A DNA stretch of 43,889 nucleotides from a virus, in the IMG/VR virus record IMGVR_UViG_3300006155_000030. One strand, written 5' to 3'. The notes beneath the pieces were generated by a model. It was not told where the DNA came from and searched no databases. It worked only from the letters and a program-made list of their open reading frames with translations. Of this stretch, positions 3,855 through 39,876 are shown piece after piece; the first letter of the stretch is position 1, and each line of letters opens with the position of its first letter. The position numbers were made by a program, and so were the translations under genes.

Positions 3855-3888
3855 ATTGTACCGCAGTTTGGCGGGGTAGTTGTACCAA
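3855..3888 (-). promoter_or_regulatory. phage late-type promoter (TGGTACAA box + -10)
   Basis: Minus strand TTGGTACAACTACCCCGCCAAACTGCGGTACAAT: the box, then exactly 22 nt after TGGTA, then TACAAT. Intergenic. Confidence 0.6.
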
Positions 3889-3896
3889 GTTAAAGG

Positions 3897-4034
3897 CTAT
3901 TTCTTTTTGGAATCTCCGAAAATAGCATAGAAAATCAGAGTAAGCATTATGCCAATACTCCAAATCAAAACAACTGTTCCGCTGAACACCCAAAAACTGC
4001 TAAATATGTACTTTAAAATTTCCAACATTCCCAT
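3897..4034 (-). CDS. small membrane protein (45 aa), putative
   Basis: Hand-translated MGMLEILKYIFSSFWVFSGTVVLIWSIGIMLTLIFYAIFGDSKKK with a weak SD AAGGGA upstream. Below the track cutoff. Confidence 0.35.
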   Translation of the reverse strand: MGMLEILKYIFSSFWVFSGTVVLIWSIGIMLTLIFYAIFGDSKKK

Positions 4035-4124
4035 ATCATCCCTTTTGCGGTTTCCGACAGGGAAAACTCCCCTATCAGAGTTATTTTGTTTTCAACAGGG
4101 CGGTGACCGCTTGCTCCTGTCTAG

Positions 4125-4640
4125 CTATATATTCTTAAAACTTTTTCTTATAGCAGCCAACCTTATTGCTTCTGGTTTTACACCAAATCTTTTTGCTAAC
4201 TGTGTTGTATTATAATTCTCTCTGTGATTATCATATAAATCTCTTATAATCAAAACGTCCTCGTTTTTCAATTTTGACTTATGGCTTTCTTCTCCAGATT
4301 TAACCATGCCATGTTCTACCGCATGTATTATATTTTCTTGATTTGTACACCATTCCAAATTATCAACACAATTATTTAGGATATTTCCGTCTATATGATT
4401 CACCATTGGCTTTCCAAGCTCATTTTCAATAAACGTTTCGGCAACAGCTTTATGGACTTTGATTGTTTTCTTGTTTTTCTTTGAGCCAAAAGTACCAGAA
4501 AAAGCATAATATCCTTGTGTATTAAAAGAAAGTTTTCTTATTCTTCCGTTAGTTGCATTTTTAACTCTTCCTTTGTTGGAAATTAAGTAATAATCTCCCA
4601 AATCCTTACCTTGATAGATAAGTCTTCTCCATTCCTCCAT
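4125..4640 (-). CDS. HNH homing endonuclease (NUMOD4 + HNH_3 type)
   Basis: 171 aa. WRRL..YYLISNKGRVKN (NUMOD4-like) is followed by VNHIDGNILNNCVDNLEWCTNQENIIHA (HNH_3 motif). SD GGAGGGATTATG. A/T-rich relative to its neighbours. Confidence 0.8.
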   Translation of the reverse strand: MEEWRRLIYQGKDLGDYYLISNKGRVKNATNGRIRKLSFNTQGYYAFSGTFGSKKNKKTIKVHKAVAETFIENELGKPMVNHIDGNILNNCVDNLEWCTNQENIIHAVEHGMVKSGEESHKSKLKNEDVLIIRDLYDNHRENYNTTQLAKRFGVKPEAIRLAAIRKSFKNI

Positions 4641-4675
4641 AATCCCTCCAATATACCATAAATACTGCGCAACAT

Positions 4676-4790
4676 TTGGAAGAATGGATTTGAACCATTA
4701 CCTAATAGCGTGCTCCCAACAGTCATAGAACGGAATCGAACCGCGATAACGTATCGTGCTCCCAATTACACCACTTCCAAACCTAATCTT
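4676..4790 (-). ncRNA. composite tRNA-like element T4
   Basis: TTGGAAG-TG-GTGT/AATTGGGA/GCAC-G-[54 nt]-AATGG/TTCAAAT/CCATT-CTTCCAA. The 54-nt insert contains a second TTGGGAGCACG (D-arm duplicate), a CGATA/CGT/TATCG hairpin and a second GGTTCGATTCC box. Confidence 0.5.
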
Positions 4791-4820
4791 TAATTTATAC
4801 ATGCGTCAACTACATGTTAA

Positions 4821-4934
4821 ATGGATAGGCAGGAATTGAACCTGCATATTAGGCACACTATAGCCACGGAGATTTGCACTCCTTTTCGTTTTGGTTAGCC
4901 TCCTACTCCGGCTCTACCATTAAGCTACTATCCA
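4821..4934 (-). ncRNA. expanded tRNA-like element T3
   Basis: TGGATAG-TA-GCTT/AATGGTA/GAGC-C-[64 nt]-GCAGG/TTCAATT/CCTGC-CTATCCA. The insert has three GGAG tracts competing for one CTCCG, an inner GGAG/TGCAAAT/CTCC hairpin and a GGC...GCC arm. Confidence 0.5.
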
Positions 4935-5158
4935 CTTTTGCACCGAATAGTCCCACACAGTTCACGGTGCTATGGTCTGCTTCCTGTAAGTCGCCGCCGT
5001 CCATCACGGATTTTACCCGTGTCGCTCTTTCAGACCTCTTACACTGTCCATTTTCTGTCTGCAAGGACTGTGCAGTTCCGAAGATGCGTTCCCTAACTTT
5101 TATATCCTGCAAAACAGGACAATCCAGAAAGTTCATTCATCTTGTACGGATTGATTGA
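4935..5158 (-). ncRNA. structured non-coding leader upstream of T3/T4
   Basis: ~220 nt between the late promoter and T3 with no SD-led ORF. Visible helices: 5105-5109/5115-5119, 5059-5063/5071-5075, 5005-5009/5017-5021, 4940-4945/4965-4970, and long-range 4974-4979/5031-5036. Confidence 0.45.
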
Positions 5159-5192
5159 ATTATACCATAATTCCAGAAATTATTTGTACCAA
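5159..5192 (-). promoter_or_regulatory. phage late-type promoter (TGGTACAA box + -10)
   Basis: Minus strand TTGGTACAAATAATTTCTGGAATTATGGTATAAT, with the same 22-nt geometry and a consensus TATAAT. It lies directly after terminator 5199-5224 and drives the non-coding region. Confidence 0.65.
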
Positions 5193-5198: not shown

Positions 5199-5224
5199 GC
5201 AAAAGAGCGGCATCACTGCCGCCC
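5199..5224 (-). terminator. Rho-independent terminator
   Basis: Minus strand GCGGCA-GTGA-TGCCGC followed by TCTTTTGCTTT, immediately after the stop of 5234..5779. Confidence 0.7.
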
Positions 5225-5233
5225 CTTGCAATA

Positions 5234-6831: not shown

Positions 6832-6865
6832 ATTATCCCATAGATTAGAGTGGAATTTGTACCAT
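6832..6865 (-). promoter_or_regulatory. phage late-type promoter (TGGTACAA box + -10)
   Basis: Minus strand ATGGTACAAATTCCACTCTAATCTATGGGATAAT with the same geometry. Intergenic, upstream of 6280..6807. Confidence 0.6.
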
Positions 6866-7044: not shown

Positions 7045-7872
7045 TTAGCAGCTACCGCAGCCATTACAGCCGTTTCCCCAACCGCCGCCGTTGAACTGTC
7101 CGCAGCAGTTTGTCGGGAAAGTCACCTGCGCCGGGGGCTGCACGACATATGCCGGAATCGGGCAGTCGTTGCCAGTTCTGCGGATAATCTGCGCTGTGTT
7201 TGCGTCCATAGCTGCCATAAGGGTAGCGTTCTGTGCTGCCTGGCTTGCCTGAAGCTGTAACGCCTGAATCTGGGCAGCCTGCTCTGCGATTTTCTCATTC
7301 TTTGCGTCAATCTTCTCCTGGCACAAATAGTCAAGAATCGCCCTGGTGTTGCTGTTCTGGCTTTCCAGAATATCCCTGGTGCTGTTGTTCATCTGGTTAG
7401 TGATTGCACAGGTATTTGTCGCCATATTGTAATTTACGCCGTCAATCGCGCGCTGCGTCTGGCAGCAACAATCAGAAAGCTGGCTGGACAAGTTGCAGAA
7501 TCCACGCTCTACGCCGTTGAATCCCTGCATCATGCCCATCTGCGTGCTGTTAAATCCGCTGTTTACTGCGTTTGTCAGTGCGTATGTACTGTCGCAGATA
7601 CCCTGCTGAATAGCTGTAATTCCACTCTGCAGATTGTTGAGGGCGAGTCCCTCGTTGATGTCTGCTCTTGTTGCCAATCCCTGCAAACCTGCGCCGTTTG
7701 CTCCACCGCCGAAGCCACCGCCCCAGCCACCGAAGCCGCCCCAGCCGAACATACCGAAGATAAGGAAAAGGATAATCCATGCTCCCCAATCTCCGCCCCA
7801 GCCACCGTTGTTGTTATTCCCGGTTCCGGCCGGCTCTACATTCATAGTAATAGGTACTCCTGATTCCATCAT
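7045..7872 (-). CDS. Gly/Trp-rich membrane-anchored, Cys-rich protein
   Basis: 275 aa with SD AAAGGAGTAAGAAACATG. GGWGGDWGAWIILFLIFGMFGWGGFGGWGGGFGGG forms a TM-like segment. Then come a Q/N/A-rich helical region with scattered Cys (incl. CCC) and the C-terminus NCCGQFNGGGWGNGCNGCGSC. Confidence 0.65.
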   Translation of the reverse strand: MMESGVPITMNVEPAGTGNNNNGGWGGDWGAWIILFLIFGMFGWGGFGGWGGGFGGGANGAGLQGLATRADINEGLALNNLQSGITAIQQGICDSTYALTNAVNSGFNSTQMGMMQGFNGVERGFCNLSSQLSDCCCQTQRAIDGVNYNMATNTCAITNQMNNSTRDILESQNSNTRAILDYLCQEKIDAKNEKIAEQAAQIQALQLQASQAAQNATLMAAMDANTAQIIRRTGNDCPIPAYVVQPPAQVTFPTNCCGQFNGGGWGNGCNGCGSC

Positions 7873-7923
7873 GTTTCTTACTCCTTTAATATATTTACAA
7901 AATCATGGCCATTGATTTGTATG

Positions 7924-8148
7924 CTATTTAAAAAATCCTTTGAACATGCCCTGCATTTGCTGGGCTTGCTGTTGTGCTGCATTAAGCTGCTGCTGGCTTA
8001 CCTTGCCAGATTGGAGCAGCTTGTTTATTTCCTCATTTGGGTTTTTACCTTTCATTTCCTGCATAAAGCGTTGGAACTGCTGGAACATATTGCCGCCCTG
8101 CGCCTGTCCTCCGCTCATTGCTCCGAAAACTGGACTACTCATTAGCAT
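7924..8148 (-). CDS. small Gln-rich protein
   Basis: Start moved to ATG 8148 (MLMSSPVFGAMSGGQAQGG...) with SD AAGGGAGGAAATG. 74 aa, rich in Q/M/F. Confidence 0.5.
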   Translation of the reverse strand: MLMSSPVFGAMSGGQAQGGNMFQQFQRFMQEMKGKNPNEEINKLLQSGKVSQQQLNAAQQQAQQMQGMFKGFFK

Positions 8149-8674
8149 TTCCTCCCTTACTTCTTGCACCGCCGCTTGATTTCTCTGTTCTCTTGGCTGT
8201 ATCGCCACTGTTATCAGCGGCATGAAAATTGTTCAACCGCTCCAAAATCTCCATGTATTTGCCCTGCAAAGCGTCATATTCCTTCCGTGTGACGTATTTA
8301 TCATCTAAGTTGATTTGCTCATTCTGTGGGGATTGTGGAACGCCCTGCGGTGTGTTATGTGTGCGCTCTTTATAGTCAAATATTTGAAGTGGCAGCGGAA
8401 TACCTGAAGCGTCTGCCGACTTGATATAAAAAACGGGGTTCTCACTGTCCATCAGCAATACGGACTGTCTGGCTCCCACCATCCAGCTTTTGGCTGCTGC
8501 CTCCCCTTGCACATATGCCCATGTCTGATTTGTTTGCGGCGGCTGCACTTCCTGTTGCATCTGTGGTAACTGGTATTGCTGTGCCTGCAACTGTGCGAGC
8601 CTGTCCATTGGCGGCTGCACTTGCAGCTGATAAGTATACGGGTAAGGTTGGGAAAACTGGTTCGGGTAAGCCAT
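8135..8674 (-). CDS. Pro/Gln-rich N-terminus protein, unknown function
   Basis: 179 aa with SD GGAGGAATCAGAGCATG. The N-terminus is MAYPNQFSQPYPYTYQLQVQPP..QQYQLPQMQQEVQPPQ, followed by a globular region WAYVQGEAAAKSWMV..VLLMDSENPVFYIKSADASG. Confidence 0.6.
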   Translation of the reverse strand: MAYPNQFSQPYPYTYQLQVQPPMDRLAQLQAQQYQLPQMQQEVQPPQTNQTWAYVQGEAAAKSWMVGARQSVLLMDSENPVFYIKSADASGIPLPLQIFDYKERTHNTPQGVPQSPQNEQINLDDKYVTRKEYDALQGKYMEILERLNNFHAADNSGDTAKRTEKSSGGARSKGGNANE

Positions 8675-10758: not shown

Positions 10759-10792
10759 ATTTTACAATAGATTCGGGCAGGGGTTGTACCAA
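10759..10792 (-). promoter_or_regulatory. phage late-type promoter (TGGTACAA box + -10)
   Basis: Minus strand TTGGTACAACCCCTGCCCGAATCTATTGTAAAAT with the same geometry. Intergenic. Confidence 0.6.
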
Positions 10793-12733: not shown

Positions 12734-13450
12734 CTATCCAAATGCACGCTCCACGCCAAAATCAAAAACTGTAAGCTGCGCCCTATGCTCCTGCAGTCTT
12801 TTATTTGCCAAATCGTAATAATATCTGTCCTTTTCAAAGCCGACATAATCTATTCCGTATTCCTCATAGGCTATTAAGCTACTGGCAGAACCAACATGAG
12901 TATCAAGGACTTTCCAGCCTTTTTCTATGTATTTCTGTGCTATCCACCGATAGAGATTGACCGGCTTCTGCGTTGGGTGTATACGCTTCTCATTCAGTTT
13001 TTTATTACCTTGCTGAATATGCCCTTCCTCTATGGATTTTCCCTGCATCATGCCATTCCACATATACCTAAATAGCCGTACAGAATCGTGCATACTGCAG
13101 TAAGCAATCTCACAGTCTGAAAAACTGCTGTCGCCGTTGCATTTATCCCATACAATACGGCCAGAACCAAAAGGATAATCAAAGTAGTTGCATCCCCATA
13201 TAATCTGATGTTTTGAAACTCTGGACAGTTCTTCAAAATATGTTTTATCTGGAACACTCCACTCGTCAGACGGTTTATAATGTCTCTGTACTCCGATAGG
13301 GCTTACTGTCCGGCCATAATAATTTCGTTTTTCTGGCCCGCTAAAATACGGAGGATCAACCACCGCAATATCAAAATACTTGTCCGGGAACTGCGGCAAA
13401 TGTTCCATGCAATCCCCGCAAATAAAGCTGTTCATTTCAACCATATCCAT
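12734..13450 (-). CDS. DNA methyltransferase (beta-class N6-adenine or N4-cytosine)
   Basis: VVDPPYFSG (motif IV) precedes HPTQKP and LDTHVGSASS (motif I), which is the beta-class order. Start at ATG 13450 after SD AGGAAAAGGGG. Confidence 0.85.
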   Translation of the reverse strand: MDMVEMNSFICGDCMEHLPQFPDKYFDIAVVDPPYFSGPEKRNYYGRTVSPIGVQRHYKPSDEWSVPDKTYFEELSRVSKHQIIWGCNYFDYPFGSGRIVWDKCNGDSSFSDCEIAYCSMHDSVRLFRYMWNGMMQGKSIEEGHIQQGNKKLNEKRIHPTQKPVNLYRWIAQKYIEKGWKVLDTHVGSASSLIAYEEYGIDYVGFEKDRYYYDLANKRLQEHRAQLTVFDFGVERAFG

Positions 13451-13475
13451 ACCCCTTTTCCTAACCATTTATTAT

Positions 13476-13509
13476 ATTTTAGGGTATTTTTGTATGGCTG
13501 ATGTACCAT
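13476..13509 (-). promoter_or_regulatory. phage late-type promoter (variant box TGGTACAT + -10)
   Basis: Minus strand ATGGTACATCAGCCATACAAAAATACCCTAAAAT with the same 22-nt geometry. It lies between 13511..13963 and the methyltransferase. Confidence 0.55.
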
Positions 13510-15611: not shown

Positions 15612-16885
15612 TACGCACTATTCCCCCTACTTAATGCCATAGGACTGATTGCATACCGTGTCGCATCAATCCAGTGGTTGTTTTTATCGGGGTATGCCTG
15701 TATGACTTCCCCGTTTGCATCGACTTCCAACTCATACTCTATAAACTCTTTATACAGTCTCGGCGTTCTGCGTGGGTCTATAACGTGCTTTCGGCACTGC
15801 AACCACTCCATTGTATATTTCACGGAGCCGCCCCACTGGCTCATGCGTCCTACCTCTGCCGCCCTTGCCGGAAGTCCTTTATCCCTAAAATCAACCGTAC
15901 TTTCGTTTTCGTCTGCTCCGCAGATAATTTGGTAATCGTCATATCCTTTTTCCTTAATCTGTGCCGCCATGTCTGCCACACGGATTTTACAGCCACCCAT
16001 TTCATCAAGATAATACAGCGTTTCTTTGTTCCTGTTGTACCCAAGTCTGACAAAAGCTTTCGGGTCGGGATACCAACCCCAATCCTGCCCTTGATAGATT
16101 CGCTCCATATTGGAGATTTCTTCGTCTGTGATTTCTCGTATCTCAATAAATTCAAATACGGTCGTTCCAAGTCCGACAGGAATACCTAAATACTCATGTT
16201 GATAGGCTTTTATATTGGTTTCTTTTAGGTGTTCCGCATCATCTATAAATTGCTGTCCTAGCCAATCGCGGGGGACTGTCGTATAGTCCGATTTATGTCG
16301 CAGTGCGTCCGCTCGCGGCTCATTTACATACTGATTTGCCCAGTTTGCATTTGTGATAGGCGGGTTGAAACTCTTAAACACCACAAACTTACTGCCACCA
16401 CGGAGTACCGACTGCTGTACGGTTCGGATTTCCTCAATCCCGGCAAACTCGTCCAATTCCTCAAACCAGAGATACTTAAAATATCCATGCGATACCTTTA
16501 TGGACTTCGTTTTCTTTGCTTTATCTAGTCCACGGAATAATATCTTTTGCCCTGTCGGCTTATAAACAAATGAAAGAGGGCTGACCTTTGCCTCCCACAA
16601 GTCAGTTGCCCCCAGTGCGTCTATACCCCACTGTATCTGCTCATATACGGATTCTCGGAGCGTGACCGCATATTTACGGAATATAACTGCATTTGCCAAC
16701 GGGTCTTGCATCATGCCAAGAGGTATCTCCACGCCGATAAATGATGATTTCGTACTACCCCTACCGCCGTAAAGGTCATAGTATATATGCTTGCCCTCTT
16801 GTATATCTCTATGAACATAATAAAATGCAGGGGCAATCAGTTCAGTTAATTTTACCGTCGTCTGTTCTTGGTATATCATCGACAA
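15611..16885 (-). CDS. terL: terminase large subunit (PBSX/Terminase_3 type)
   Basis: 424 aa with Walker A YGGRGSTKSSF near the N-terminus and a C-terminal nuclease region (..GADENEST.., ..NNHWIDATRY..). It follows TerS. Confidence 0.9.
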   Translation of the reverse strand: MSMIYQEQTTVKLTELIAPAFYYVHRDIQEGKHIYYDLYGGRGSTKSSFIGVEIPLGMMQDPLANAVIFRKYAVTLRESVYEQIQWGIDALGATDLWEAKVSPLSFVYKPTGQKILFRGLDKAKKTKSIKVSHGYFKYLWFEELDEFAGIEEIRTVQQSVLRGGSKFVVFKSFNPPITNANWANQYVNEPRADALRHKSDYTTVPRDWLGQQFIDDAEHLKETNIKAYQHEYLGIPVGLGTTVFEFIEIREITDEEISNMERIYQGQDWGWYPDPKAFVRLGYNRNKETLYYLDEMGGCKIRVADMAAQIKEKGYDDYQIICGADENESTVDFRDKGLPARAAEVGRMSQWGGSVKYTMEWLQCRKHVIDPRRTPRLYKEFIEYELEVDANGEVIQAYPDKNNHWIDATRYAISPMALSRGNSA

Positions 16886-17213: not shown

Positions 17214-17672
17214 CTAATTCAAAAATTCAAATATTTCAAACATCGCTCTTGCTTTATCTATTTCTTTGTTTCTCAGTAATTTCCTAAAAGCAATCATCAT
17301 TTCAATAGTTTCATAGTCTACAAATTGCGTTGCATTTGCTGACTTCCACCACCCTTCTACTCTTGGCAGATATTTGTTTATCCCCCACGTTGCTTTTACT
17401 TTGTTGTAATATCTCCACGTCTCGTAAAGTGCTATTAAATGGGCTTCAAACGCTTCCACTTCAGAACGGTTTTCACATTCAAAATACTGGATTTCCCAAT
17501 TTTTTCCGATGCACCATTCATCACGATAAGCATGATCCATTATTCGCTTTTCTAAATCTGATTTGTATACAATACCGATATATTTTATTATCCGATCTTC
17601 TGTGTCTATGTATCTGTATACGCATGGTTTTGTGTTGTTTATTTTACCACGTCTTGTATTTATCCTTGCCAT
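17214..17672 (-). CDS. GIY-YIG-like nuclease-fold protein
   Basis: Start at ATG 17672 (MARINTRRGK...), 2 nt after the radical-SAM stop. Contains CVYRYID..IKYIGIV (GIY-YIG-like), then R and E residues (..RSEVEAFEAHLI..). The track ORF's 65-aa N-terminal extension overlaps the upstream gene. Confidence 0.5.
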   Translation of the reverse strand: MARINTRRGKINNTKPCVYRYIDTEDRIIKYIGIVYKSDLEKRIMDHAYRDEWCIGKNWEIQYFECENRSEVEAFEAHLIALYETWRYYNKVKATWGINKYLPRVEGWWKSANATQFVDYETIEMMIAFRKLLRNKEIDKARAMFEIFEFLN

Positions 17673-17673
17673 A

Positions 17674-19002: not shown

Positions 19003-19010
19003 GTTTCACC

Positions 19011-26919: not shown

Positions 26920-27699
26920 ATGGATGTATACGAAGTTTTATCGGATATAATGGCTTATGAAGGACTTTCAATAGCACAAGTGGCAAAGAAATGTGGTCTT
27001 CCAGATTCTACGGTTAGAGGCATTACAACCAGAAAACAAAAAACTGTCTCACTTGATGTTGCATATAAACTTTCTGATGGATTAGGTGTTTCACTCGAAC
27101 GATTGAACGGGATGAAAGACCCCAATGAAAATAAAGAAAGAAGTTATTATGAAACTCATGCCACGGATAAGGAATTTGAGGACATTATAAGAAAATATCG
27201 TATTATATCCGAATATTCCCCGGACGGAGCAGTCGTGGTTGATACGGTACTGGATAGGGAGTATGCTATTGCGGAGAAGTTGAGGGAGCAGAAAGAGCAG
27301 TTGGAAAAGGTTCAGAGGATGAATATAGAAGTATCGGAAGAACTTATACCATTAAGGCTGTGGGCTTATTACGGGAAAATCGCTTGCGCCGGAACTGGAT
27401 TTATATTTGATGATATTCCATCAGATACCGTTCAAGCCCCGGACGCAAACGCAGACTTTATAATAGGTGTAAACGGTGATTCTATGGAGCCTGACTATTC
27501 TGACGGAGAAAAACTGTATATTAAAAAGGTAGAGCGTATAAATCCGGGCGAAGTCGGCATATTCACTATCAATAATGAATGTTTCTTGAAAGAATATGGA
27601 AAAGACGGGCTTGTTTCCAGAAATAAAAAGTATGACGATATTCCGGGAAACGAAGATGTACGTCTAATTGGGAAAGTAGTTGGAAAAGTTGAGGAATAA
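26920..27699 (+). CDS. CI-like repressor (XRE HTH + S24 LexA-type peptidase)
   Basis: 259 aa. N-terminal HTH LSIAQVAKKCGLPDSTVRGI, C-terminal GDSMEP..K catalytic pattern of S24 autopeptidases. SD GGAAGGAGGGAAACAGATG. Confidence 0.9.
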   Translation: MDVYEVLSDIMAYEGLSIAQVAKKCGLPDSTVRGITTRKQKTVSLDVAYKLSDGLGVSLERLNGMKDPNENKERSYYETHATDKEFEDIIRKYRIISEYSPDGAVVVDTVLDREYAIAEKLREQKEQLEKVQRMNIEVSEELIPLRLWAYYGKIACAGTGFIFDDIPSDTVQAPDANADFIIGVNGDSMEPDYSDGEKLYIKKVERINPGEVGIFTINNECFLKEYGKDGLVSRNKKYDDIPGNEDVRLIGKVVGKVEE

Positions 27700-28023: not shown

Positions 28024-28179
28024 AAGAAAAAACCGCCCGGCGCTACCAACACCGAACGGCTTACATAGATACCAGAAGATGATACCTACAACCCAAAAAT
28101 ATTGTATCATCTTCGGGGGCGGCTTGCAAGCGGATTTCCCGCAGGCTGTTATTTTTTTACAAAAAAGGAGGATGATACC

Positions 28180-29214
28180 ATGGCAACAGCAAAAAAACTA
28201 CCGTCCGGCAACTGGCGCTGCCAAGTCTACGATTACACGGACGGAGCTGGGAAACGGCATTACAAGTCCTTTACGGCCGCCACGAAAAGGGGAGCGGAGC
28301 ATCTGGCCGCAGAATACGCCGACACAAAAAAGGAGCGGCCGCAGCCGCTTAAGGTGACAGTGGGCAAGGCGCTGGATAATTATATCAATATCAAAAGCAA
28401 TGTATTATCCCCCAGCACGGTAAGGGGGTACCGCGCGATGAGAAGCAGCAACTATTCCGATATCGAAGATATCCTGCTGGAAGACCTCACGCAGGAAGTG
28501 GTGCAGATATGGGCAAACTCCTTGGCTGCAAAGAAAAATGCCAAAACGGTTAAAAACGCCCATGGGCTGCTGTCGGCCATGCTCTCCGTGTATATGCCAG
28601 ATTTCATGCTCCGTACCGCCCTTCCGAAAAAGCAGAAGGAAGTGCCGTACATACCAACAGAAAGCGATATAAGGCTCATAATGGAGTTTTTCAAGGAAAA
28701 GGATACAGAAATGCTTAAGGCGGTTTACCTGGCCGCGTTCGGCACGCTGCGGCGTTCAGAGATATGCGGGTTGACCGGGGAAGATATAGAGGGGAATGTG
28801 ATCCACGTCCACTCGGCTGTTGTTATGGATGATTCGGCTAACTGGATCAAAAAAAATACAAAAACATCTTCCAGCGACAGATATATACCTCTTCCAGATT
28901 TCGTAATCGATGCGCTGCCAAAAAGCGGCAATGTAGTTCTAATTGAACCTTCCAAAATATCTGCACGGTTTTCGTCCGCATTGAAAAGACTTTCCATACC
29001 TCATTTCCGCTTCCATGATTTGCGCCATTATTCGGCCAGCATCATGCACGCGATCGGCATCCCGGATCAATATATCATGCAGCGGGGCGGTTGGAGTTCG
29101 GATGGGGTTTTAAAATCAATTTACCGCAATACCATGGACGATTACGCCAAAAAATTTAGCAGCCAGATCAACGATTATTTTAAAAATGCAACACAAAATA
29201 TCACACAAGAATAG
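28180..29214 (+). CDS. int: tyrosine integrase
   Basis: Start at ATG 28180 (MATAKKLPSGNWRCQVY) with SD AAAAGGAGGA. The C-terminal catalytic region is LRRSE..HFRFHDLRHY..GGWSS..LKSIYRN (R..HxxR..Y). Confidence 0.9.
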   Translation: MATAKKLPSGNWRCQVYDYTDGAGKRHYKSFTAATKRGAEHLAAEYADTKKERPQPLKVTVGKALDNYINIKSNVLSPSTVRGYRAMRSSNYSDIEDILLEDLTQEVVQIWANSLAAKKNAKTVKNAHGLLSAMLSVYMPDFMLRTALPKKQKEVPYIPTESDIRLIMEFFKEKDTEMLKAVYLAAFGTLRRSEICGLTGEDIEGNVIHVHSAVVMDDSANWIKKNTKTSSSDRYIPLPDFVIDALPKSGNVVLIEPSKISARFSSALKRLSIPHFRFHDLRHYSASIMHAIGIPDQYIMQRGGWSSDGVLKSIYRNTMDDYAKKFSSQINDYFKNATQNITQE

Positions 29215-29425: not shown

Positions 29426-30211
29426 TTAATTAATCGCCGTCCATGTTTTTACCCCCACAATCCCATCAACAATAAGACTGTTTTCTGCCTGAAATGCTTT
29501 TACTGCTTCTAATGTTTTTTTACCAAAAATTCCGTCAATATTACCAACCCCATAACCTTTTGCCGTAAGACGCTGCTGCAGATATGTCACATCATCACCA
29601 CGGCTTCCTGTTTTAATAGTGCTGCGTTTCGGAGCAGTTCCCTGAAGATTCCCATAATATATATTCATGTCTACATTGGATGGTATGCCTGATATCCTGC
29701 CTTTTGAAGAATGCTGCCACATAAACGGATTGTATCCGTCTATATTAGAATTATACCTTGCCAGCCACAAGGGATATTTGCTAAGATCACCAAATTTATT
29801 TTCTATATAATCAATATTTGAATAGACCCCAACCTCATAACCTTTGGCAGACAAATAATCACAAAAAGCTTTTACGCTATCCGTCCGGCCTTCTTTTGTT
29901 TGCGGATTGCGCTTATCGGAATCATACTCCCAGTCAGCCCATACCCGCATAGTAATAATATCCTTATAACCCTCAATGCATTTTTCGCACATTTTGGCAT
30001 TAAGGACGGCCTCGTCCTTGTTGGCGGCATAAATAAACCAGTAAATGCCTATTTTTACTCCAGCCGTATGAGCGCCACAGATATTATTGATAAACTGCTT
30101 GTCCATCTGCGACTTTCCATATCCGGCTCGAATAATCGCAAAATCTATTGACTGGCTTGCTTTTTTCCAGTCAATTTTTCCATTATGGTACGATACATCA
30201 ATCCCTTTCAT
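29426..30211 (-). CDS. endolysin: GH25 muramidase + PG_binding_1 domain
   Basis: 261 aa. MKGIDVSYHNGKIDW..DFAIIRAGYG is a GH25 N-terminus. The C-terminal ..GDDVTYLQQRLTAKGY..IDGIFGKKTLEAVKAFQ is a peptidoglycan-binding repeat. Confidence 0.9.
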   Translation of the reverse strand: MKGIDVSYHNGKIDWKKASQSIDFAIIRAGYGKSQMDKQFINNICGAHTAGVKIGIYWFIYAANKDEAVLNAKMCEKCIEGYKDIITMRVWADWEYDSDKRNPQTKEGRTDSVKAFCDYLSAKGYEVGVYSNIDYIENKFGDLSKYPLWLARYNSNIDGYNPFMWQHSSKGRISGIPSNVDMNIYYGNLQGTAPKRSTIKTGSRGDDVTYLQQRLTAKGYGVGNIDGIFGKKTLEAVKAFQAENSLIVDGIVGVKTWTAIN

Positions 30212-30221: not shown

Positions 30222-30461
30222 CTACTTTCTTAAGTCTTTTAAATGCTCGTCAGCTATAATGGCCGCCTGTGTAAAACTATTGTTTTTCCACCACGCACAC
30301 AGTGACGCTCCTACAGTCAAAGCCATGGACACGGCCTGCCCGAAATCCTCGTCCGCAAACGGGAGAGGGCTATAGCCGCTGATTGTCAGCACTTGGTTGA
30401 TAAGTGCAAAAACTAATACCGCAGTTCTCACGATGGTTCCTGTTTCAATTTTCTTTTTCAT
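30222..30461 (-). CDS. holin (phi LC3-type)
   Basis: 79 aa. IVRTAVLVFALINQVLTISGYSPLPF plus a second TM segment. Located between XhlA and the lysin. Confidence 0.75.
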   Translation of the reverse strand: MKKKIETGTIVRTAVLVFALINQVLTISGYSPLPFADEDFGQAVSMALTVGASLCAWWKNNSFTQAAIIADEHLKDLRK

Positions 30462-30751: not shown

Positions 30752-30785
30752 ATGATACCTTACGAAAGACTGGACATTGTACCAT
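30752..30785 (-). promoter_or_regulatory. phage late-type promoter (TGGTACAA box + -10) for the lysis cassette
   Basis: Minus strand ATGGTACAATGTCCAGTCTTTCGTAAGGTATCAT with the same geometry. It overlaps the last codons of small ORF 30760..30885. Confidence 0.55.
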
Positions 30786-33031: not shown

Positions 33032-33231
33032 TATTCTTCACCATCCACGATATCCTGCGCAAAATCTTCCAGCTCCGCAACGCAATCCAAAGCAGCGCGG
33101 TTCACTACCACTTTGTTTGTGCGTTCATTTTCTTTTACGATGTTTCCGTTTCCATCAATTTCAGAAAACGTAATAGATAGACGTTTTCCTTCTGCTGTAG
33201 TCAATATTGTCATACTGGTTACTTTTCTCAT
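33031..33231 (-). CDS. hypothetical small tail-module protein (66 aa)
   Basis: ORF coupled by overlapping start/stop codons to both neighbours. Confidence 0.45.
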   Translation of the reverse strand: MRKVTSMTILTTAEGKRLSITFSEIDGNGNIVKENERTNKVVVNRAALDCVAELEDFAQDIVDGEE

Positions 33232-35852
33232 ATTTTTAATGCCTCCTTGTAAAAACTTTCTATGTAATTTTGTGCTTCTTTCTCATAATTGATAAATTCT
33301 TCTGGTTCTTCCTGCACAAAATTTTCCATTCTTTCTGTTTCAAATCCCAACTGCCTTGCTTTTATTTCCCATCCAAATTTAAGGAAAGGAGTTCCTTTAA
33401 CAAGGAAGTAATTCGGTTTCCTTTCCTCCACACACACATCCCCTTGCCCGTATTTTTGCAGGAATACCTGATACTGGCAGGATGTATTTATGGTTTCATA
33501 AAATATGTCATCTATGGATATGTAACATATTCCATTTTCATCTAGTGTAGCTTCCCCGATATCCCCAAAATATGGCTTGGTGGTTTCATAGCAGTATAAT
33601 AGGCGGTCGGAATAATTTTGAGTTTTTGCAAGGCGTGATTTACTTCCGTCTGCCAATAAATATCCATCCACAGATAAATTTTTAAGTTTGCAAAGCTGCG
33701 TAGTTCCATTATCTGAAAGAAACATTTGAGAGCCGATGCCTATTCTGCATCCATAATTACCTCCTCCAAACATTTTTATATCATTTCCTATGTTTAAATT
33801 TGTTTCACCATTTGCCAAATATTTTGCAATATATATTCCTCCAAATTTTATATGTGCAGTTTCCTCATCTTTAAAACTAATTTTGTTTTCTCCTACAAAA
33901 TTTATAGTATTATATTTTTCGCCGTTTCCTCCTTCAAACGCAAGAATTTCCAAAAGTTTTTGTTCGTTTTTTGTTACATAAATTCCCGAAATTCCTATTT
34001 TAATTTCTGAACTTCCATATATGTACACAGTTCCATTGAATTTGGAATCAACAGCTCCTATATTAACGTATTCTTTTGAATCACTATTAATTTTTAATCC
34101 AGTGGCAGAAATAGCTGTGAATGAATCACCAGTGGTATATCCACATCTAATAGATAACGCTGACATACCAGTTTGCCACCCTCCACTTCTTAAAATTATT
34201 CTGGAATCTTTTTCGTTGCTTGTATGAATGTTGACGATTCCCCCGGTAATATTCGCAGAATTAGTGGTAATTCCATCTTTATCAAATCTTCCTATCTCAT
34301 TTCCTTTTGCATCATAAATCACACACGAGCCATCAATATTGTTATCGCCGCCAAGGGTAAGAGTGCCGCCTTTTATCCAGTCGGCTACAATGCCAATCGC
34401 ATAAAGGATATTTACTACTGCATTTCCGTTTTTATCGAATCCGGCCGTATAGGTTTTCCCCCCGTCAGTTGATATAAAAAACCCGTCAATGGTCTGTTTG
34501 TAAATTGTTTTTGATCCTGCTAAACTTGGCTTATCATGGAGATAAGTTATAACACTTCCGTCCGGCTGTTTTTCTACCGTTGTATGGTATCCAAGGGCGT
34601 TTCCGGCAATCTGCGTCATATTCTGCACGGCCTTGTCATAAGTGGAAAGCTGTTTTTCTGTGTTTCTCCGCGCTTCCACAACTGCGGCCGCCGCTTCAGA
34701 ATAATACATGCTGCCGTTCCTGACCGGGTCTTCCGCTTCGCAGGATACTTGCGTATAAGAACCGACTGTATAGGAAACGGAATTTATTATCGAAACATAC
34801 ACATTCCCTTTCCAATCCGACACCCTTACTACTTCAAAAGGTTCGTAAAGAGGATTATTTAATATCTGCGCGGAAAAAGGCCGGAAAACCATGCCAACTA
34901 TGCGGCCGCCAAGGTAGTTTGCTACTTCCTGCTCTTTTCCTGCTGCAAAAGGATTTTTTACTTCAATCAAATATCCTTCTTCACCAAATATAGCAAAATT
35001 ATCGTCTTCGCCAATTACTTTAACTCCCGTAATCTGCACATCATCCGTATGCACGTCAAGAGATTTTACACGGAATATATGTTCCGGCATATCTGAAAAA
35101 TTGCCGCCAGAAATAATGGTGTTTGTGCTGTAATCCGTAAAATTGCCGCCGTCAAGTATGGTATCATGAGGATATGTCTTAAAATCCCCACCAACATAAT
35201 TATACTGCTCCAATAATGCGGAGTTGTACCAAATTAACTGCATATATCCGTCATTGTCTATCCGGGCGTTATATCCGGCTATCTGGCAGGCATAGGAAAC
35301 AATCTGCCGGTAAGTTCCCGATTCCGGCTTTTCCTTTACGGTAAAAGACATATTATCAAACTGCCGGAAGCCTATGGGGATGCCGCAGTCAAGGCAGGCA
35401 TCCGTGAGAATTGTCTGCAAAGTGGCCGGATATGAGGTTTTGCTGGTGGAATAGTCCTTATCCAGCAAAAACATTCCATCTACTGCATTGATTTCTATGA
35501 TTTCCCCTTTTGTAGACGGAATCGTGGCATAATACACTCCTTTGCGGATTTTTTCTATGGTTCCATCATCCATGGCCATTGCGACATAAACGCGGATTAT
35601 GGAGTTATAGAAGTCATATCTGGAGAACCGTTCATCATGGTTTGCAATCTTTATGGCCAATGTCTTCCCAACCACAAAACCTACACCAAATTTACCATCT
35701 GTGGTCTTGTCTTCTATGCTGCATCCTCCTATCATGAAATCCTTTGGTTCCAAGTGCAGGACGGTACCGTCTGACAGAGTCACGTCTGCATAATTTACGA
35801 CCGCCGCGCCGTTTTTCAGTTTTTCCTTAAATTCTTTACTTGCATTTATCAT
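33228..35852 (-). CDS. tail-associated/baseplate hub protein (Tal-like, prophage-tail endopeptidase family)
   Basis: 874 aa, third gene after the tape measure. The N-terminus MINASKEFKEKLKNGAAVVNYADVTLSDGTVLHL..FMIGG is typical of the Prophage_tail/Tal N-domain as recalled. Confidence 0.7.
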   Translation of the reverse strand: MINASKEFKEKLKNGAAVVNYADVTLSDGTVLHLEPKDFMIGGCSIEDKTTDGKFGVGFVVGKTLAIKIANHDERFSRYDFYNSIIRVYVAMAMDDGTIEKIRKGVYYATIPSTKGEIIEINAVDGMFLLDKDYSTSKTSYPATLQTILTDACLDCGIPIGFRQFDNMSFTVKEKPESGTYRQIVSYACQIAGYNARIDNDGYMQLIWYNSALLEQYNYVGGDFKTYPHDTILDGGNFTDYSTNTIISGGNFSDMPEHIFRVKSLDVHTDDVQITGVKVIGEDDNFAIFGEEGYLIEVKNPFAAGKEQEVANYLGGRIVGMVFRPFSAQILNNPLYEPFEVVRVSDWKGNVYVSIINSVSYTVGSYTQVSCEAEDPVRNGSMYYSEAAAAVVEARRNTEKQLSTYDKAVQNMTQIAGNALGYHTTVEKQPDGSVITYLHDKPSLAGSKTIYKQTIDGFFISTDGGKTYTAGFDKNGNAVVNILYAIGIVADWIKGGTLTLGGDNNIDGSCVIYDAKGNEIGRFDKDGITTNSANITGGIVNIHTSNEKDSRIILRSGGWQTGMSALSIRCGYTTGDSFTAISATGLKINSDSKEYVNIGAVDSKFNGTVYIYGSSEIKIGISGIYVTKNEQKLLEILAFEGGNGEKYNTINFVGENKISFKDEETAHIKFGGIYIAKYLANGETNLNIGNDIKMFGGGNYGCRIGIGSQMFLSDNGTTQLCKLKNLSVDGYLLADGSKSRLAKTQNYSDRLLYCYETTKPYFGDIGEATLDENGICYISIDDIFYETINTSCQYQVFLQKYGQGDVCVEERKPNYFLVKGTPFLKFGWEIKARQLGFETERMENFVQEEPEEFINYEKEAQNYIESFYKEALKI
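35199..35232 (-). promoter_or_regulatory. late-type promoter box inside the Tal-like ORF
   Basis: Minus strand TTGGTACAACTCCGCATTATTGGAGCAGTATAAT with perfect geometry and a consensus -10. Located at about codon 207 of 33228..35852. Confidence 0.45.
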
Positions 35853-36232: not shown

Positions 36233-39200
36233 CTATGTTGTTCCAAGCGCAAACATATTGTTTCCTGTTGCCATCTGCTGAATTTTTCCTTCTTTTACCA
36301 CTGACTCTGCAACTTGTTTTCCGTCAAGATATTGCTTTATAATGATTGTTTGCGGATTGCTATTGATCCTGTTTCCAGTTATTCCAAGTTCCGACAGCAC
36401 TTCCAAAATAGATTCCCTGTTAGCTTTTTTTATTGTATCAAGCGGAGCCTCGACATTTGTACCATGTTTCTGATCGCCCAGTACGGCCAAAAATTCTTTG
36501 TTTGCCGGTATTACCGCTCCTGTGGCCAGCTTTGGTATTGGAGTGGTTCTTAGCGAATCAAACGCCGGACTTTGATACATTGACAAAGAAGCTGGTGTGA
36601 AAGAATAACTTCTCCCGTAAGAATAAGAGCTTGTGCTTCTGGATGAAATTACCCGCGAGGTAAGGCTTCTTAAAGAATTGCCAAGCGATCCGATTGTGCT
36701 GGAAATCCATCCAAATACGGAACTTATTGTATTTTTTACCGAATCCAGCACGGAGCCGACCTTGCCCTGCATTCCTTCCCATGCCCGCGACCATATATTT
36801 TGCGCACTGGATGAAAAATTGCTGATCGCGCTTTGCATCCCGGAAAATTTATCCCGGACGCTCCCGGCCATGGACTGCGCGGAGGATACTGCCTTTTCCT
36901 TTATATTGCCCCATGCGGATGCTGTTGTTTCCTTGGCTTTCGCCCATGCATTCGCAATATTGGTTTTTACATTTTCTGCCGACTCTTTTACGTTGGATTT
37001 AATATTTGTCCATGATTCCTTTATTCCATTTTTCACATTATCAAACGTGGCCTTTGCGCCGGATTTTATATTGTTCCATTTTTCGGAAAGGTTCTGTTTG
37101 ATGCCATCCCAAACTTGCGATGCCGTCTGCTTAATGGAATTCCAGGTATTTCCAAGAAAATCCTTCACCCCATTCCAAATATTGACCGCAGTTTCTTTCA
37201 TCCCTTCCCATATGGCTTTTACATCGCCTACAAGGCTCAATATGCCGTTCAACAGGCCTTGGATGATGTATTTTCCCATTTCGGCCATGACGGTGGACGG
37301 GGAGTGGATGCCGAAAAGGGATTTGAATGCATCCATAAAAGGTTTGAATATATGGTCATGTATCCAATCTCCGATTCCGACTATAGCATCCACAATTCCC
37401 TGCATAAGTCCAAAGATTATATCTTTACCAATTTCCCATATTCCAGATACTATAGTTCTAATTCCTTCTACAAATCCTTCAACAACAGTTTGCAATCCCT
37501 TAAAAGCTAATTCCCAATCTCCAGAAAAGACTCCTGTTAAAAAATCAATAATTCCTCCTATAACCGTTATAATAGAATTTATAGCATCTGAAACATATCC
37601 TACAAATTTTACTAATTCATCCCATACAGCCTTTATAACTGGAAGGATTTTAGGAAGAACATTATCTATAATCCACGCAATAAAAGGTTGCAATATGTTT
37701 TCCCATAAAGCTTTCAACAAATCTGCAACTTTACCCAAAAGTTCAATAAAATTATCAACCATTGGCTGTATATGGGTTTTCCACAATTTGTCAAAATCTT
37801 TTGCCATTTGTTTAAGAATTGGTTGTACTTTTCCATTCCAAAAATCTAAAAATCTTTTAACTAAATCAGATAACCCATCAGCAATCGAATCAAAAAACGG
37901 TTTAAAATGTTCATCATACACTTCATTCAGTTTGTCAAACGTATCATCCACCGCATCCTTTATAGTTCCGGCCACATCTGCCAGGACTCCAAGAAACCCT
38001 TCTAAAGCTGTGCGGAACCCTTCCTTGTTTTCCACAAATGGCTGTATAAATATATTGAGAACATCCCTTATAAGTTTTGATGCAAGCTCCGTCACTCCCA
38101 TAAATGCATCCGTAAATATGCCAATAAGGTTTGCGGTAAGCCGCTGGCCATCTTCGCTTGCAAATGCTTCAAATACATATGCAAAGGACTGGAATAAGTC
38201 TGATAACAGGTAGTTTACTTCTTCCCATATGTCAAACATAGAAACAAGATGATCTTTTATCCTTTCCTTATTTTCTTCCAGGTATTTTGCAATGCCGCCT
38301 ACAATGTTAGTAGCAATCGTCAGCCCTATGCTTGCCGTAGCACCGACAAGGCTGCCCAACATATACGCGACAGATTTCACGAAACTGTCTGCGGCAGAAA
38401 TAACTTCCGGGTTCGTAAAAATATCCTTAAGACTTTCCTTTATGGATGCTATGCTGTCCTTTATGGAGTCCCACCGATACTCCCAATCGCCCAGCCCGTC
38501 AAAAAAGCCCTGTTTGAAAATCCCGGCCAACTCTTTCAATTTCCCTATTAAACCGTCGGCCGATTCGCTTACTTTATCTAGGACATTTTCACCCTCTGCG
38601 ACCTTACCATAATCTATATTTTCAATTTCACTGATATTTCCAATGTCTATCCCTGCTTCCGGTTGCTCTAAATCAGCAAGTTCTTCATTTTTACTGAATT
38701 TGTTTATTTCATCAAGAGGGCTTAAATATCCTTCTGCGGCTTTTTCCGCATCTTTGGTTGCATCGGCCACTTTTTCTGTAGATATTGCCAAATTATCTGC
38801 CGCGTCTGCCGCATCATTATATCCGTCAATGGAGTCACCTAAACCGCCTCCAGCCATTCCGGCTTTTGCCGCCACTCCGCTTCCTGCAGAAGCTTTTTTG
38901 CCTGTTATTAACTCCGTAAAAGATTTAAAGGCATTGGCAACCGTTGCAAGTTTTTCAAGCAATATATTGATAACCTTTATAGCAGGCGTAAAGATATTGA
39001 TAAGTCCCTGTCCTATGGTTGCCATTAAGCTTTCAATCTGCAATTTTAAAATTCTTGTCTGGTTTGCCCAACTGTCTGATGTACGGATAAAATCCCCGGA
39101 TGCTCCGGCAAGCTGGTCTATCACAAATTGATACCTTAAGGCGACTTTTTCCTGCTCCGTCATTTTGCTTGTAGTTTTCCCGAAACCATTGGCAAGAGCG

Positions 39201-39736
39201 TACTGGTCAAGAGCAGCTTGCGTCATGACAACGCCAAGTTCTTTCAATGTCTCTGTTTCTCCCGTAAATACGGATTTCAGCTTTATGTATGCTTCGTCTT
39301 GCGAGATGTTATAAAAAGATGCAACATCCCCTGATAATTGCGTCAGAGCAGTAGACATCTTATAGGCTTCATCCTCCGCAAAACCAAAAGATTTTGACAT
39401 GGCACCAAACGTACCGACATACCTTTTTGCCATGGTTTCCGATAAACCGGCAGATACGGCAGCGTTTTTTGCAAATTCATTCACTTTTTCTGACATGGTG
39501 GTAAATGTCACGTCCACAACATTCTGCACTTCTTCCAAATCAGAGCCTAATTCTATGGCTTCTTTTCCGAACTGAATAAGTTTTTTTACAGCAAAAACAG
39601 AAGCAAGTAGAGCGGCAGTACTTCTTGCAGCTTCGCTAATACGGCTTAAAGACCCCCTTACCGCTGATTCTCCACGCCTGATTCCATTTGTATCAATTTC
39701 TGTATTTATCCTTATGCTTCCGTCATACTGCGCCAT
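36233..39736 (-). CDS. tape measure protein
   Basis: 1167 aa, the largest ORF, downstream of the chaperone genes. It has an N-terminal TMP-type region, hydrophobic central segments, and a long run of ~11-residue W..(I/V)K periodic repeats (..AIWEGMKETAVNIWNGVKDFLGNTWNSIKQTASQVWDGIKQ..). Confidence 0.9.
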   Translation of the reverse strand: MAQYDGSIRINTEIDTNGIRRGESAVRGSLSRISEAARSTAALLASVFAVKKLIQFGKEAIELGSDLEEVQNVVDVTFTTMSEKVNEFAKNAAVSAGLSETMAKRYVGTFGAMSKSFGFAEDEAYKMSTALTQLSGDVASFYNISQDEAYIKLKSVFTGETETLKELGVVMTQAALDQYALANGFGKTTSKMTEQEKVALRYQFVIDQLAGASGDFIRTSDSWANQTRILKLQIESLMATIGQGLINIFTPAIKVINILLEKLATVANAFKSFTELITGKKASAGSGVAAKAGMAGGGLGDSIDGYNDAADAADNLAISTEKVADATKDAEKAAEGYLSPLDEINKFSKNEELADLEQPEAGIDIGNISEIENIDYGKVAEGENVLDKVSESADGLIGKLKELAGIFKQGFFDGLGDWEYRWDSIKDSIASIKESLKDIFTNPEVISAADSFVKSVAYMLGSLVGATASIGLTIATNIVGGIAKYLEENKERIKDHLVSMFDIWEEVNYLLSDLFQSFAYVFEAFASEDGQRLTANLIGIFTDAFMGVTELASKLIRDVLNIFIQPFVENKEGFRTALEGFLGVLADVAGTIKDAVDDTFDKLNEVYDEHFKPFFDSIADGLSDLVKRFLDFWNGKVQPILKQMAKDFDKLWKTHIQPMVDNFIELLGKVADLLKALWENILQPFIAWIIDNVLPKILPVIKAVWDELVKFVGYVSDAINSIITVIGGIIDFLTGVFSGDWELAFKGLQTVVEGFVEGIRTIVSGIWEIGKDIIFGLMQGIVDAIVGIGDWIHDHIFKPFMDAFKSLFGIHSPSTVMAEMGKYIIQGLLNGILSLVGDVKAIWEGMKETAVNIWNGVKDFLGNTWNSIKQTASQVWDGIKQNLSEKWNNIKSGAKATFDNVKNGIKESWTNIKSNVKESAENVKTNIANAWAKAKETTASAWGNIKEKAVSSAQSMAGSVRDKFSGMQSAISNFSSSAQNIWSRAWEGMQGKVGSVLDSVKNTISSVFGWISSTIGSLGNSLRSLTSRVISSRSTSSYSYGRSYSFTPASLSMYQSPAFDSLRTTPIPKLATGAVIPANKEFLAVLGDQKHGTNVEAPLDTIKKANRESILEVLSELGITGNRINSNPQTIIIKQYLDGKQVAESVVKEGKIQQMATGNNMFALGTT
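36432..36465 (-). promoter_or_regulatory. late-type promoter box inside the 3' end of the tape-measure ORF
   Basis: Minus strand ATGGTACAAATGTCGAGGCTCCGCTTGATACAAT with the same geometry. Located at about codon 1091 of 1167. Confidence 0.45.
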
Positions 39737-39842
39737 AAAATCACCCGTAAAATAAAAAAGTGCCAGAATAACGTCAACACGTACTTACCGGCACCGTTTA
39801 GCCGTTATCTACAACCGTTTATGCAGATCTCATATTTAATTT

Positions 39843-39876
39843 ATTTTAGCATGGTTTTTGAGTGGATTTGTACCAA
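39843..39876 (-). promoter_or_regulatory. phage late-type promoter (TGGTACAA box + -10) for the tape-measure operon
   Basis: Minus strand TTGGTACAAATCCACTCAAAAACCATGCTAAAAT. It lies immediately after the moron terminator at 39879-39901. Confidence 0.6.

Follow-up and report, generated by a model that had tools for sequence, protein, structure and literature searches.

The genome examined here is IMG/VR virus record IMGVR_UViG_3300006155_000030, a stretch of 43,889 nucleotides (nt) that is called the window below. It represents a temperate siphovirus (GC content 42%) whose genes lie almost all on the minus strand; the host group of the prophage is the Lachnospiraceae, a family of gut bacteria. 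How phages of the dominant gut Clostridia control their late genes has hardly been studied at all. The window carries ten copies of a composite element in which a box, TGGTACAA, precedes a -10-like hexamer at an invariant distance of 19 nt. As judged from sequence comparison, these sites behave as a late promoter class that is tied by position, by co-occurrence in both search directions and by co-variation to a phage-encoded protein of 150 amino acids (aa), here called X. We consider it probable, with some reserve, that X is an activator or adaptor that acts in the -35 region together with the host sigma-A RNA polymerase at all ten sites.

A box at a fixed distance from a -10 hexamer

The ten sites had been listed in an original prediction made from the DNA alone, and their coordinates, their hexamers and their common orientation with the genes all proved right (Table 1). 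The hexamer is TACAAT at three sites (3887, 20581 and 36464), TAAAAT at three (10791, 13508 and 39875), TATAAT at two (5191 and 35231), GATAAT at one (6864) and TATCAT at one (30784). A shuffle test, as the prediction had proposed, places the fixed spacing beyond chance: the minus strand holds ten copies of the composite TGGTACA-N20-KANMAT and the plus strand none, where 100 dinucleotide-preserving shuffles give an expectation of 0.01 (mean of 0.007 in first-order Markov simulations). The core WTGGTACAW alone is present 11 times on the minus strand and 0 times on the plus strand (1.34 expected), and 10 of the 11 minus-strand cores have a hexamer at offset 27 from the T of TGGTACA (binomial P ~1e-21). 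No other offset between box and hexamer is enriched in the window. With a position weight matrix (PWM) derived from them, the ten sites score 28.7-51 bits and everything else on both strands 14 bits or less (shuffled maximum 12); given this clean gap, the window contains exactly ten sites. The eleventh core copy lacks both the TTAA described below and a -10 and is probably not functional; it is the only trace of the motif in the early/lysogeny region, which had been predicted to be free of late sites.

The full consensus of the ten sites is TTAAnW-TGGTACAA-N19-TAnAAT. Box, spacing and -10 were thus borne out as the conserved element, whose extent had been drawn too short: TTAA stands at -6 to -3 relative to TGGTACAA, and the spacer contributes a C-rich stretch, AA and T. 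G is frequent at both of the two bases that precede the hexamer, and an A stands directly after TAnAAT. The spacer is otherwise variable among the sites.

When the hexamer is set at -12 to -7, TGGTACAA occupies -39 to -32 and TTAA -45 to -42, about 3 base pairs (bp) upstream of a canonical -35. Compared with housekeeping sigma-A promoters, the sites have an ordinary -10 (TAnAAT in 9/10), preceded by G or TG in 6-7 of the ten, with TG at -15/-14 in 4/10. They lack a TTGACA-like -35, as had been predicted: the hexamers 16-18 nt upstream read ACAAAT or TACAAA and match TTGACA at no more than three of six positions. A sigma-70 consensus scan listed none of the ten sites, though it found TTGACA-17-TATAAT at 40404-40376, and consensus matches across the window are no commoner than in shuffled sequence. 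This 'moron' promoter is as textbook as had been claimed, matching the consensus at 12 of 12 positions with a TG; the 'early' promoter at 26844-26816, given the same label, actually reads TTGACA-17-TTTAAT and falls slightly short of it. Two other classes were considered for the ten sites and rejected. A sigma-54 reading, raised by the likeness of TGGTAC to TGGCAC, fails as the box is followed by no GC element at 5 nt and is conserved together with a -10 hexamer at 19 nt, and a MerR-type mechanism with an over-long spacer fails as the spacer has no conserved dyad across sites.

Eight of the ten sites directly precede gene blocks: going downstream from the predicted transcription start, a ribosome-binding site and a start codon are reached after 14-205 nt. 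At five sites the ribosome-binding site is 14-46 nt downstream. At 10759-10792, for example, an AGGAGG ribosome-binding site and a start codon follow 14 nt past the predicted start. The site that we call P1 heads the radical-SAM/ParB_N/terS/terL/portal block (first start codon at 20496), and each accessory cassette of the head module has a box copy of its own, namely the methyltransferase gene, the three-gene block, the block of tRNA-like elements and HNH endonuclease, and the small-gene block. Two sites had been placed directly past terminator hairpins, and these hairpins are real (39881-39906, z = -5.2; ~5199-5229, z = -4.5).

Linkage of the box to a phage protein family

X is separated from P1 by a single 60-aa open reading frame (ORF). 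It consists of a Cys-rich N-terminus (residues 1-47), modeled with low confidence, and a conserved core (residues ~50-150) that AlphaFold2 predicts as five helices with a predicted local distance difference test (pLDDT) score above 90. The long last helix opens with a GRTDFYGYRR motif in which the invariant residues are concentrated. Close homologues of X number 669, none with a name or Pfam domain. An exhaustive HMMER search of 1.84 billion representative proteins yielded 191 clusters (50% identity), to all of which only residues ~50-150 are common. The protein belongs to phrog_11237, a family of unknown function (E = 1.2e-6), which 59 of 74 family members match (best E = 8.8e-11).

Using X homologues, we collected 41 loci, 18 bacterial (Lachnospiraceae, Acetatifactor, Hungatella and Eubacterium sp. 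14-2, mostly mouse-gut genomes) and 23 from IMG/VR. Lachnospiraceae JLR.KK009 (CP143549.1) and Eubacterium sp. 14-2 are examples of hosts with a close relative of the phage. Nearly all of the 41 loci carry the composite motif, without exception on the gene strand. Its first copy comes ~150-1600 nt downstream of X, and the 10 kb upstream are free of it. Relatives have up to four copies in the ~14 kb examined. Conservation at orthologous positions, which the prediction called for, was found: the P1 site is kept in nearly all relatives and the site at 10759-10792 is kept as well. Among 114 unique TGGTACAW sites in X-homologue loci, 53 have the hexamer at offset 27 and 1 at offset 28. Spacers differ widely between non-orthologous sites, so what is conserved is the box, the hexamer and the distance between them. 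The linkage extends to distant X homologues (34-54% identity, phage GC content 35-41%), whose genes are followed directly by (T/A)GGTACAA-N19-TAnAAT, with more copies downstream; in some phages the box lies 18-29 nt past X. In divergent phages, terL/terS come immediately after the X-family gene.

The same linkage emerged in the reverse direction. We scanned IMG/VR with the DNA pattern TAANWTGGTACAA-N19-TANAAT alone and obtained 116 loci, 24 of which have an X-family ORF upstream on the same strand according to an X-family hidden Markov model. X or late genes are shared with the window in 84 of the 116. Since the X family is rare in viral contigs (23 loci among 2.9 million), its enrichment upstream of the box is very large. 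The reverse scan also brought up an X subgroup of ~80 aa that comprises only the C-terminal half of the core (...SYDMLEAHHGILPISRNCFYRRRR...).

Another relative is Roseburia phage Jekyll (LR596902.1). Its genome was annotated by its authors using HHpred (bioRxiv 10.1101/575076), and despite this its X homologue, VUE37364.1, is still listed as hypothetical. The gene is followed by TGGCACAA-N19-TATAAT, the first of four TGGCACAA-N19-TAnnAT sites (0.01 expected), all on the gene strand and all with the same T-to-C change. Two of the Jekyll copies, spaced 134 nt apart, form a tandem ahead of the scaffold and capsid genes, and one lies near the integrase end outside the structural region, upstream of a small hypothetical gene (43616-43777). 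Variant boxes accompany other divergent X subfamilies as well. A 'MRTR' subfamily of ~30% identity, encoded directly upstream of terL, goes with boxes that read GTGTATACAA (L176 twice, L178), GTATACAA/ACATACAA (L182) and GGTGTACAA (L183), all 19 nt from TAnAAT; the variants TGGCACAA, GTGTACAA and GTATACAA each keep the N19 distance. Family-wide, ACAA-N19-TAnAAT is invariant and the bases just upstream vary by protein lineage. The co-variation of box and protein argues more strongly for a functional tie than co-occurrence does.

The co-variation also bears on the possibility that a host factor, either an alternative sigma or an activator induced in the SOS response or lytic growth, reads the box and that X is a mere conserved neighbour. 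Such a factor would fit the similarity of the box core across hosts of one bacterial family, and the tie between X and the DNA is an indirect one. Within a genome, however, the box copies shift together with the X subfamily of the phage (TGGTACAA, TGGCACAA, GTGTACAA or GTATACAA), which is explained most simply by a phage-encoded reader and less well by a host factor common to all. Moreover, the host or early flanks of the 18 bacterial loci contain no box, and we know of no Firmicute alternative-sigma -35 element that the box resembles, which also counts against a host factor. We regard this alternative as unlikely.

How might X act on these sites? Transcription start at these sites, binding of the box by X and recognition of the -10 by sigma-A are all inferred. 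X would be produced from the end of the early operon. The host sigma-A RNA polymerase would recognize the TAnAAT hexamer, often with a G or TG just before it, and, given the lack of a TTGACA-like hexamer 16-18 bp further upstream, could not use the late promoters on its own. X would bind the asymmetric TTAAnW-TGGTACAA at about -45 to -32, 3 bp upstream of the canonical -35, and supply the missing upstream contact, either by touching RNA polymerase in the manner of a class-II activator or by standing in for sigma region 4. All late units would thereby come on at once, including packaging, head, tail and lysis genes as well as the accessory cassettes with their own promoter copies.

Several observations weigh against an activator role of X. 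X shows no recognizable DNA-binding or sigma domain. The 74 family members have no match in Pfam (E<=0.01) or NCBIfam (E<=0.1), X-family profiles from two alignments gave only noise against PDB sequences, and a Foldseek search of PDB and BFVD with the X model returned nothing better than E~1. The last three helices of the model seem to resemble a helix-turn-helix with a long turn, a likeness judged by eye. Two of the ten sites are intragenic, one in the tape-measure gene and one in the gene of an 874-aa tail protein. A strong terminator-like hairpin (3022-3059, minus strand; 17 pairs and a T-run) separates the promoter at 3855-3888 from the scaffold and capsid genes, and the PWM scan found no further box beyond it. 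Phages with X and the box also share head/packaging genes at 35-55% identity and form one broad clade, so their co-occurrence is not fully independent of common descent. Finally, six distant X-family loci (L174, L175, L177 and L179-L181) have no clear box nearby.

We also considered that X might be a minimal alternative sigma factor which replaces sigma-A and reads box and hexamer itself. The original prediction had left room for this, postulating a late class in need of a phage sigma factor or activator and proposing X as a candidate to be compared with sigma, RinA and ArpU families. A class that lacks the sigma-A -35 is supported, and X has become a strong candidate as box and family co-occur in both search directions; a phage sigma factor has found no support, and neither has a sigma identity of X. 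A single rigid distance between box and hexamer would be expected if one protein read both, and the co-variation of box and protein would fit too. Yet the conserved core of ~80-100 residues, reduced to three helices in the shortest subgroup, is too small for sigma regions 2 and 4 together, and the hexamers are ordinary sigma-A -10 elements that do not co-vary with the box. Ten X-family members gave no sigma-70 match in Pfam even at E<=10, and Foldseek returned only insignificant matches to sigma-E region 2 (E~8). RinA (TIGR01636), ArpU (TIGR01637), Sigma70_r4 and DUF1492 matched no family member (LtrC has no model in these libraries), no solved fold matched, and the window proteins scanned contain no sigma-70 domain. 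X is thus improbable as a sigma factor.

The prediction had named a second candidate, an 86-aa protein here called Y, which might read the box alone or together with X. Its sigma-region-4-like fold is a reasonable assignment: the AlphaFold2 model (pLDDT 84.5) best matches region 4 of sigma-A and of extracytoplasmic function (ECF) sigma factors and YlxM-type helix-turn-helix proteins, with target-normalised template-modelling (TM) scores of 0.6-0.69, a Foldseek probability of ~0.99 and weak E-values of 0.17-1. Y is also present in several close box-bearing relatives. Other observations weigh against Y as the reader. Y has no Pfam or PHROG match and only 92 homologues in 5.8 billion proteins, all of them close. 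Its gene, found in a subset of close relatives, lies ~9.5 kb downstream of X and past the box at 10791 in a late operon, so Y would have to activate its own synthesis. Around the 33%-identical homologues of Y (L056, L057), the DNA examined contains no box and no X. Conversely, the box-bearing phages with a divergent X have no Y in the DNA examined (Jekyll was not searched for Y), and hhalign detected no relation between the two families. Y is unlikely to be the primary factor, and we give the idea that it reads the box little credence.

That the repeats are module-boundary or recombination sequences or repressor operators rather than promoters seems highly improbable: several copies lie at accessory-cassette borders and P1 is embedded in an inverted repeat, but this reading leaves the invariant 19-nt distance to a -10-like hexamer across a variable spacer, the strict co-orientation with genes and the ribosome-binding sites 14-46 nt downstream unexplained.

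Returning to X as the activator, a broader proposal can be made, which we hold tentatively and think rather doubtful. The X family (phrog_11237) may constitute a structurally new class of -35 readers, with no detectable likeness to sigma region 4 or to established helix-turn-helix activators. It would retarget the sigma-A polymerase to a box of the form (N)GTACAA/TATACAA, placed at 19 bp from the -10, as a Firmicute-phage counterpart of sigma appropriation. Protein and box might have diversified together into the specificities TGGTACAA, TGGCACAA, GTGTACAA and GTATACAA, cross-reacting or not, and accessory cassettes might join the late regulon by carrying the box.

Putative late transcription units and neighbouring features

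The late region comprises all genes past the early region. Following the radical-SAM block, the order is terS, terL, portal, minor head proteins and the DNA methyltransferase gene, then ~8 kb of small genes of unknown function with an HNH endonuclease gene, and then scaffold, major capsid and connector genes. Tail genes, tape measure, tail proteins, holin and endolysin span the window ends. A megablast of 25 kb against GenBank phages gave only short 75-82% matches, so there is no annotated close relative. A tblastn search of X against GenBank phages returned nothing, and one weak match was obtained there with protein P0150; viral scans with proteins P0166 and P0231 gave no matches.

Table 1. 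Putative late promoter sites and other features. Coordinates refer to the window, except in the last row.
Feature	Coordinates	Strand	Sequence	Context
P1 (putative late promoter)	20549-20582	-	TTGGTACAA-N19-TACAAT	begins right past stop codon of last early ORF
Putative late promoter	13476-13509	-	ATGGTACAT-N19-TAAAAT	upstream of DNA methyltransferase gene 12734-13468
Putative late promoter	10759-10792	-	TTGGTACAA-N19-TAAAAT	heads small-gene block that includes the 86-aa protein
Putative late promoter	6832-6865	-	ATGGTACAA-N19-GATAAT	upstream of three-gene accessory cassette (6807 to 5234)
Putative late promoter	5159-5192	-	TTGGTACAA-N19-TATAAT	right after terminator hairpin; two tRNA-like elements and HNH endonuclease gene downstream
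Putative late promoter	3855-3888	-	TTGGTACAA-N19-TACAAT	top PWM score; upstream of small genes and scaffold/major capsid module
Putative late promoter	39843-39876	-	TTGGTACAA-N19-TAAAAT	right after hairpin 39881-39906; tape-measure gene 100 nt downstream
Putative late promoter, intragenic	36432-36465	-	ATGGTACAA-N19-TACAAT	in 3' end of tape-measure ORF; lowest PWM score (28.7 bits); next gene start 36220
Putative late promoter, intragenic	35199-35232	-	TTGGTACAA-N19-TATAAT	within 874-aa tail protein ORF 33228-35852
Putative late promoter	30752-30785	-	ATGGTACAA-N19-TATCAT	heads lysis cassette (92-aa protein, holin 30222-30461, endolysin 29426-30211)
Eleventh core copy	25966-25974	-	ATGGTACAT	early region; without TTAA, without -10
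Protein X, 150 aa	20763-21215	-		proposed trans-acting factor; penultimate gene of early operon
Protein Y, 86 aa	8859-9119	-		within late operon; rival or accessory candidate
Early region	26790 down to 20584	-		Cro-like helix-turn-helix proteins, Cas4-type exonuclease, RusA, Lin1244/DnaD-like protein
CI-like repressor	26920-27699	+		lysogeny gene
Integrase	28102-29214	+		lysogeny gene
Radical-SAM (290 aa)/ParB_N-domain (157 aa)/radical-SAM (442 aa)/GIY-YIG-like (217 aa) block	17214-20496	-		ahead of terS and terL
Jekyll sites (LR596902.1)	16297-16463 (two), 24405-24437, 43807-43839	gene strand	TGGCACAA-N19-TAnnAT	

Some features beside the promoter sites deserve mention in their own right. The radical-SAM/ParB_N/GIY-YIG-like block would be the first to be transcribed from P1 and may be a DNA-modification or nuclease module. 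At P1 itself (20527-20575, minus strand), the -10 is flanked by the two arms of an inverted repeat, one formed by the spacer CCCCCTCAAATCTGCTG and the other by the transcribed leader TTAGGGGATTTAGAGGG, and a second -10-like hexamer, TAGAAT, overlaps TACAAT. Overlap and inverted repeat are both kept at the P1 sites of close relatives (L002-L041). The RNA fold of the repeat is no better than that of shuffled sequence (z = -0.39); the repeat might serve as an operator or fold only in early transcripts that read through. Within the 874-aa tail gene, in-frame start codons (TTG 34970, GTG 34802) lie downstream of the internal site, and an N-terminally truncated isoform of the tail protein could result.

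Between the promoter at 5159-5192 and the HNH endonuclease gene (4125-4640) there are two tRNA-like Rfam matches (4675-4780 and 4821-4934, minus strand, 42 bits each). Acceptor, D and T arms are intact in both, the anticodon arm is replaced by ~61 nt, and ARAGORN calls no tRNA; the pair could be intron-containing or degenerate tRNAs. The first element overlaps a mechanically called 77-aa ORF (4903-5136). The idea that box promoters drive a tRNA in relatives was rejected, as ARAGORN found none in six loci.

A moron-like cassette (39881-40455, minus strand) lies between tail genes and the tape-measure gene. It has hairpins on either side (40430-40455 and 39881-39906), and the perfect sigma-A promoter at 40404-40376 drives its ORFs 40081-40332 and 39895-40077; the cassette can probably be expressed in the lysogen by host RNA polymerase. 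Two further observations concern relatives. In L174, L175 and L177 the X-family genes reside in small, satellite-like elements with integrase and primase (VapE/Prim-Pol) genes, and in L177 direct repeats of GGTACTGAA follow the X-family gene. The head module of L176 contains a reverse-transcriptase-like ORF (7288-8505; weak RVT_1 match) beside a variant late box at 8903.

Comparison with known systems

A phage late activator with its cognate promoter is a known kind of system; here it would come with an apparently new protein family and with a multi-promoter regulon. A literature search for TGGTACA(A) as a phage promoter and for late promoters in Lachnospiraceae returned only primers and unrelated papers. 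If our reading is correct, a widespread protein of unknown function (669 close homologues, 191 clusters) would gain a concrete, testable role, and a 33-nt promoter signature would flag, in phage contigs from metagenomes, both late transcription units and accessory late cassettes. Naturally diversified pairs of activator and promoter might then serve as expression switches in the hard-to-engineer Lachnospiraceae. The Jekyll host, Roseburia intestinalis L1-82, is cultivable and the phage mitomycin-inducible, which offers direct experimental access.

The original prediction had noted a loose likeness of the core to promoters of the TcdR group (TcdR/BotR/UviA). Both occur with Clostridia hosts and both have 'TACA' within the -35 element, but the likeness goes no further: TcdR-group promoters combine a TTTACA -35 with a GTTATA -10 (PMC4031146) and differ from TGGTACAA-N19-TAnAAT in both elements. 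Moreover, the TcdR group are full sigma-70-family proteins, whereas the window encodes none. Of the regions 2 and 4 that define this family, X shows neither and Y a region-4-like fold only.

Mu C/Mor and P2 Ogr are activators of Proteobacteria phages that bind as dimers to dyad-symmetric sites. They share with the proposed system several late promoters with a poor -35 and a small phage activator that acts over or just upstream of the -35 region; the box described here is asymmetric and differs in position, in contrast, the X family is unrelated, and no homologues of Mu C or P2 Ogr were found. For Mu, PMC4461284 gives four C-dependent late promoters.

By analogy of function, the closest counterpart of X would be the Ltr superfamily (RinA, ArpU, LtrA/Sigma70_r4, LtrB/DUF1492, LtrC). 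PMC3152322 and PMC3753634 describe its members as activators of late genes in temperate phages of Gram-positive bacteria; their genes close the early region, ahead of the terminase genes, and late transcription depends on them. X is likewise small, phage-encoded in a Firmicute host and placed where the early region gives way to the terminase/late genes, and it is proposed to act as the switch for morphogenesis and lysis genes; in the window, 3.5 kb of late genes lie between P1 and terS. By sequence, X appears to stand outside the superfamily, as none of the 74 family members matches the models of RinA, ArpU, Sigma70_r4 or DUF1492. The promoters differ too. Ltr phages are described (PMC3753634) with a single late promoter upstream of terS that drives the late cluster, whereas here ten copies are dispersed over the genome (four in Jekyll, up to four in relatives), and a -35-region box at fixed spacing is not described in the passages of PMC3152322 and PMC3753634 consulted. 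The multi-promoter regulon would thus depart from the single-late-promoter picture of staphylococcal and streptococcal phages.

A different parallel is offered by the middle promoters of phage T4. In T4, MotA and AsiA appropriate sigma at these promoters, where the MotA box is centred near -30. As in T4, many dispersed promoters combine a host-type -10 with a phage-specific box that replaces the -35 and would be read by a phage protein; the box described here is located further upstream, at about -39 to -32. PHROG scans of the window proteins found no MotA or AsiA homologues, and no conserved partner gene accompanies X across lineages; the box follows X almost immediately in some phages. It is nevertheless possible that X and its box are a functional analogue of T4-type appropriation, in which a phage-specific box is joined to a host -10.

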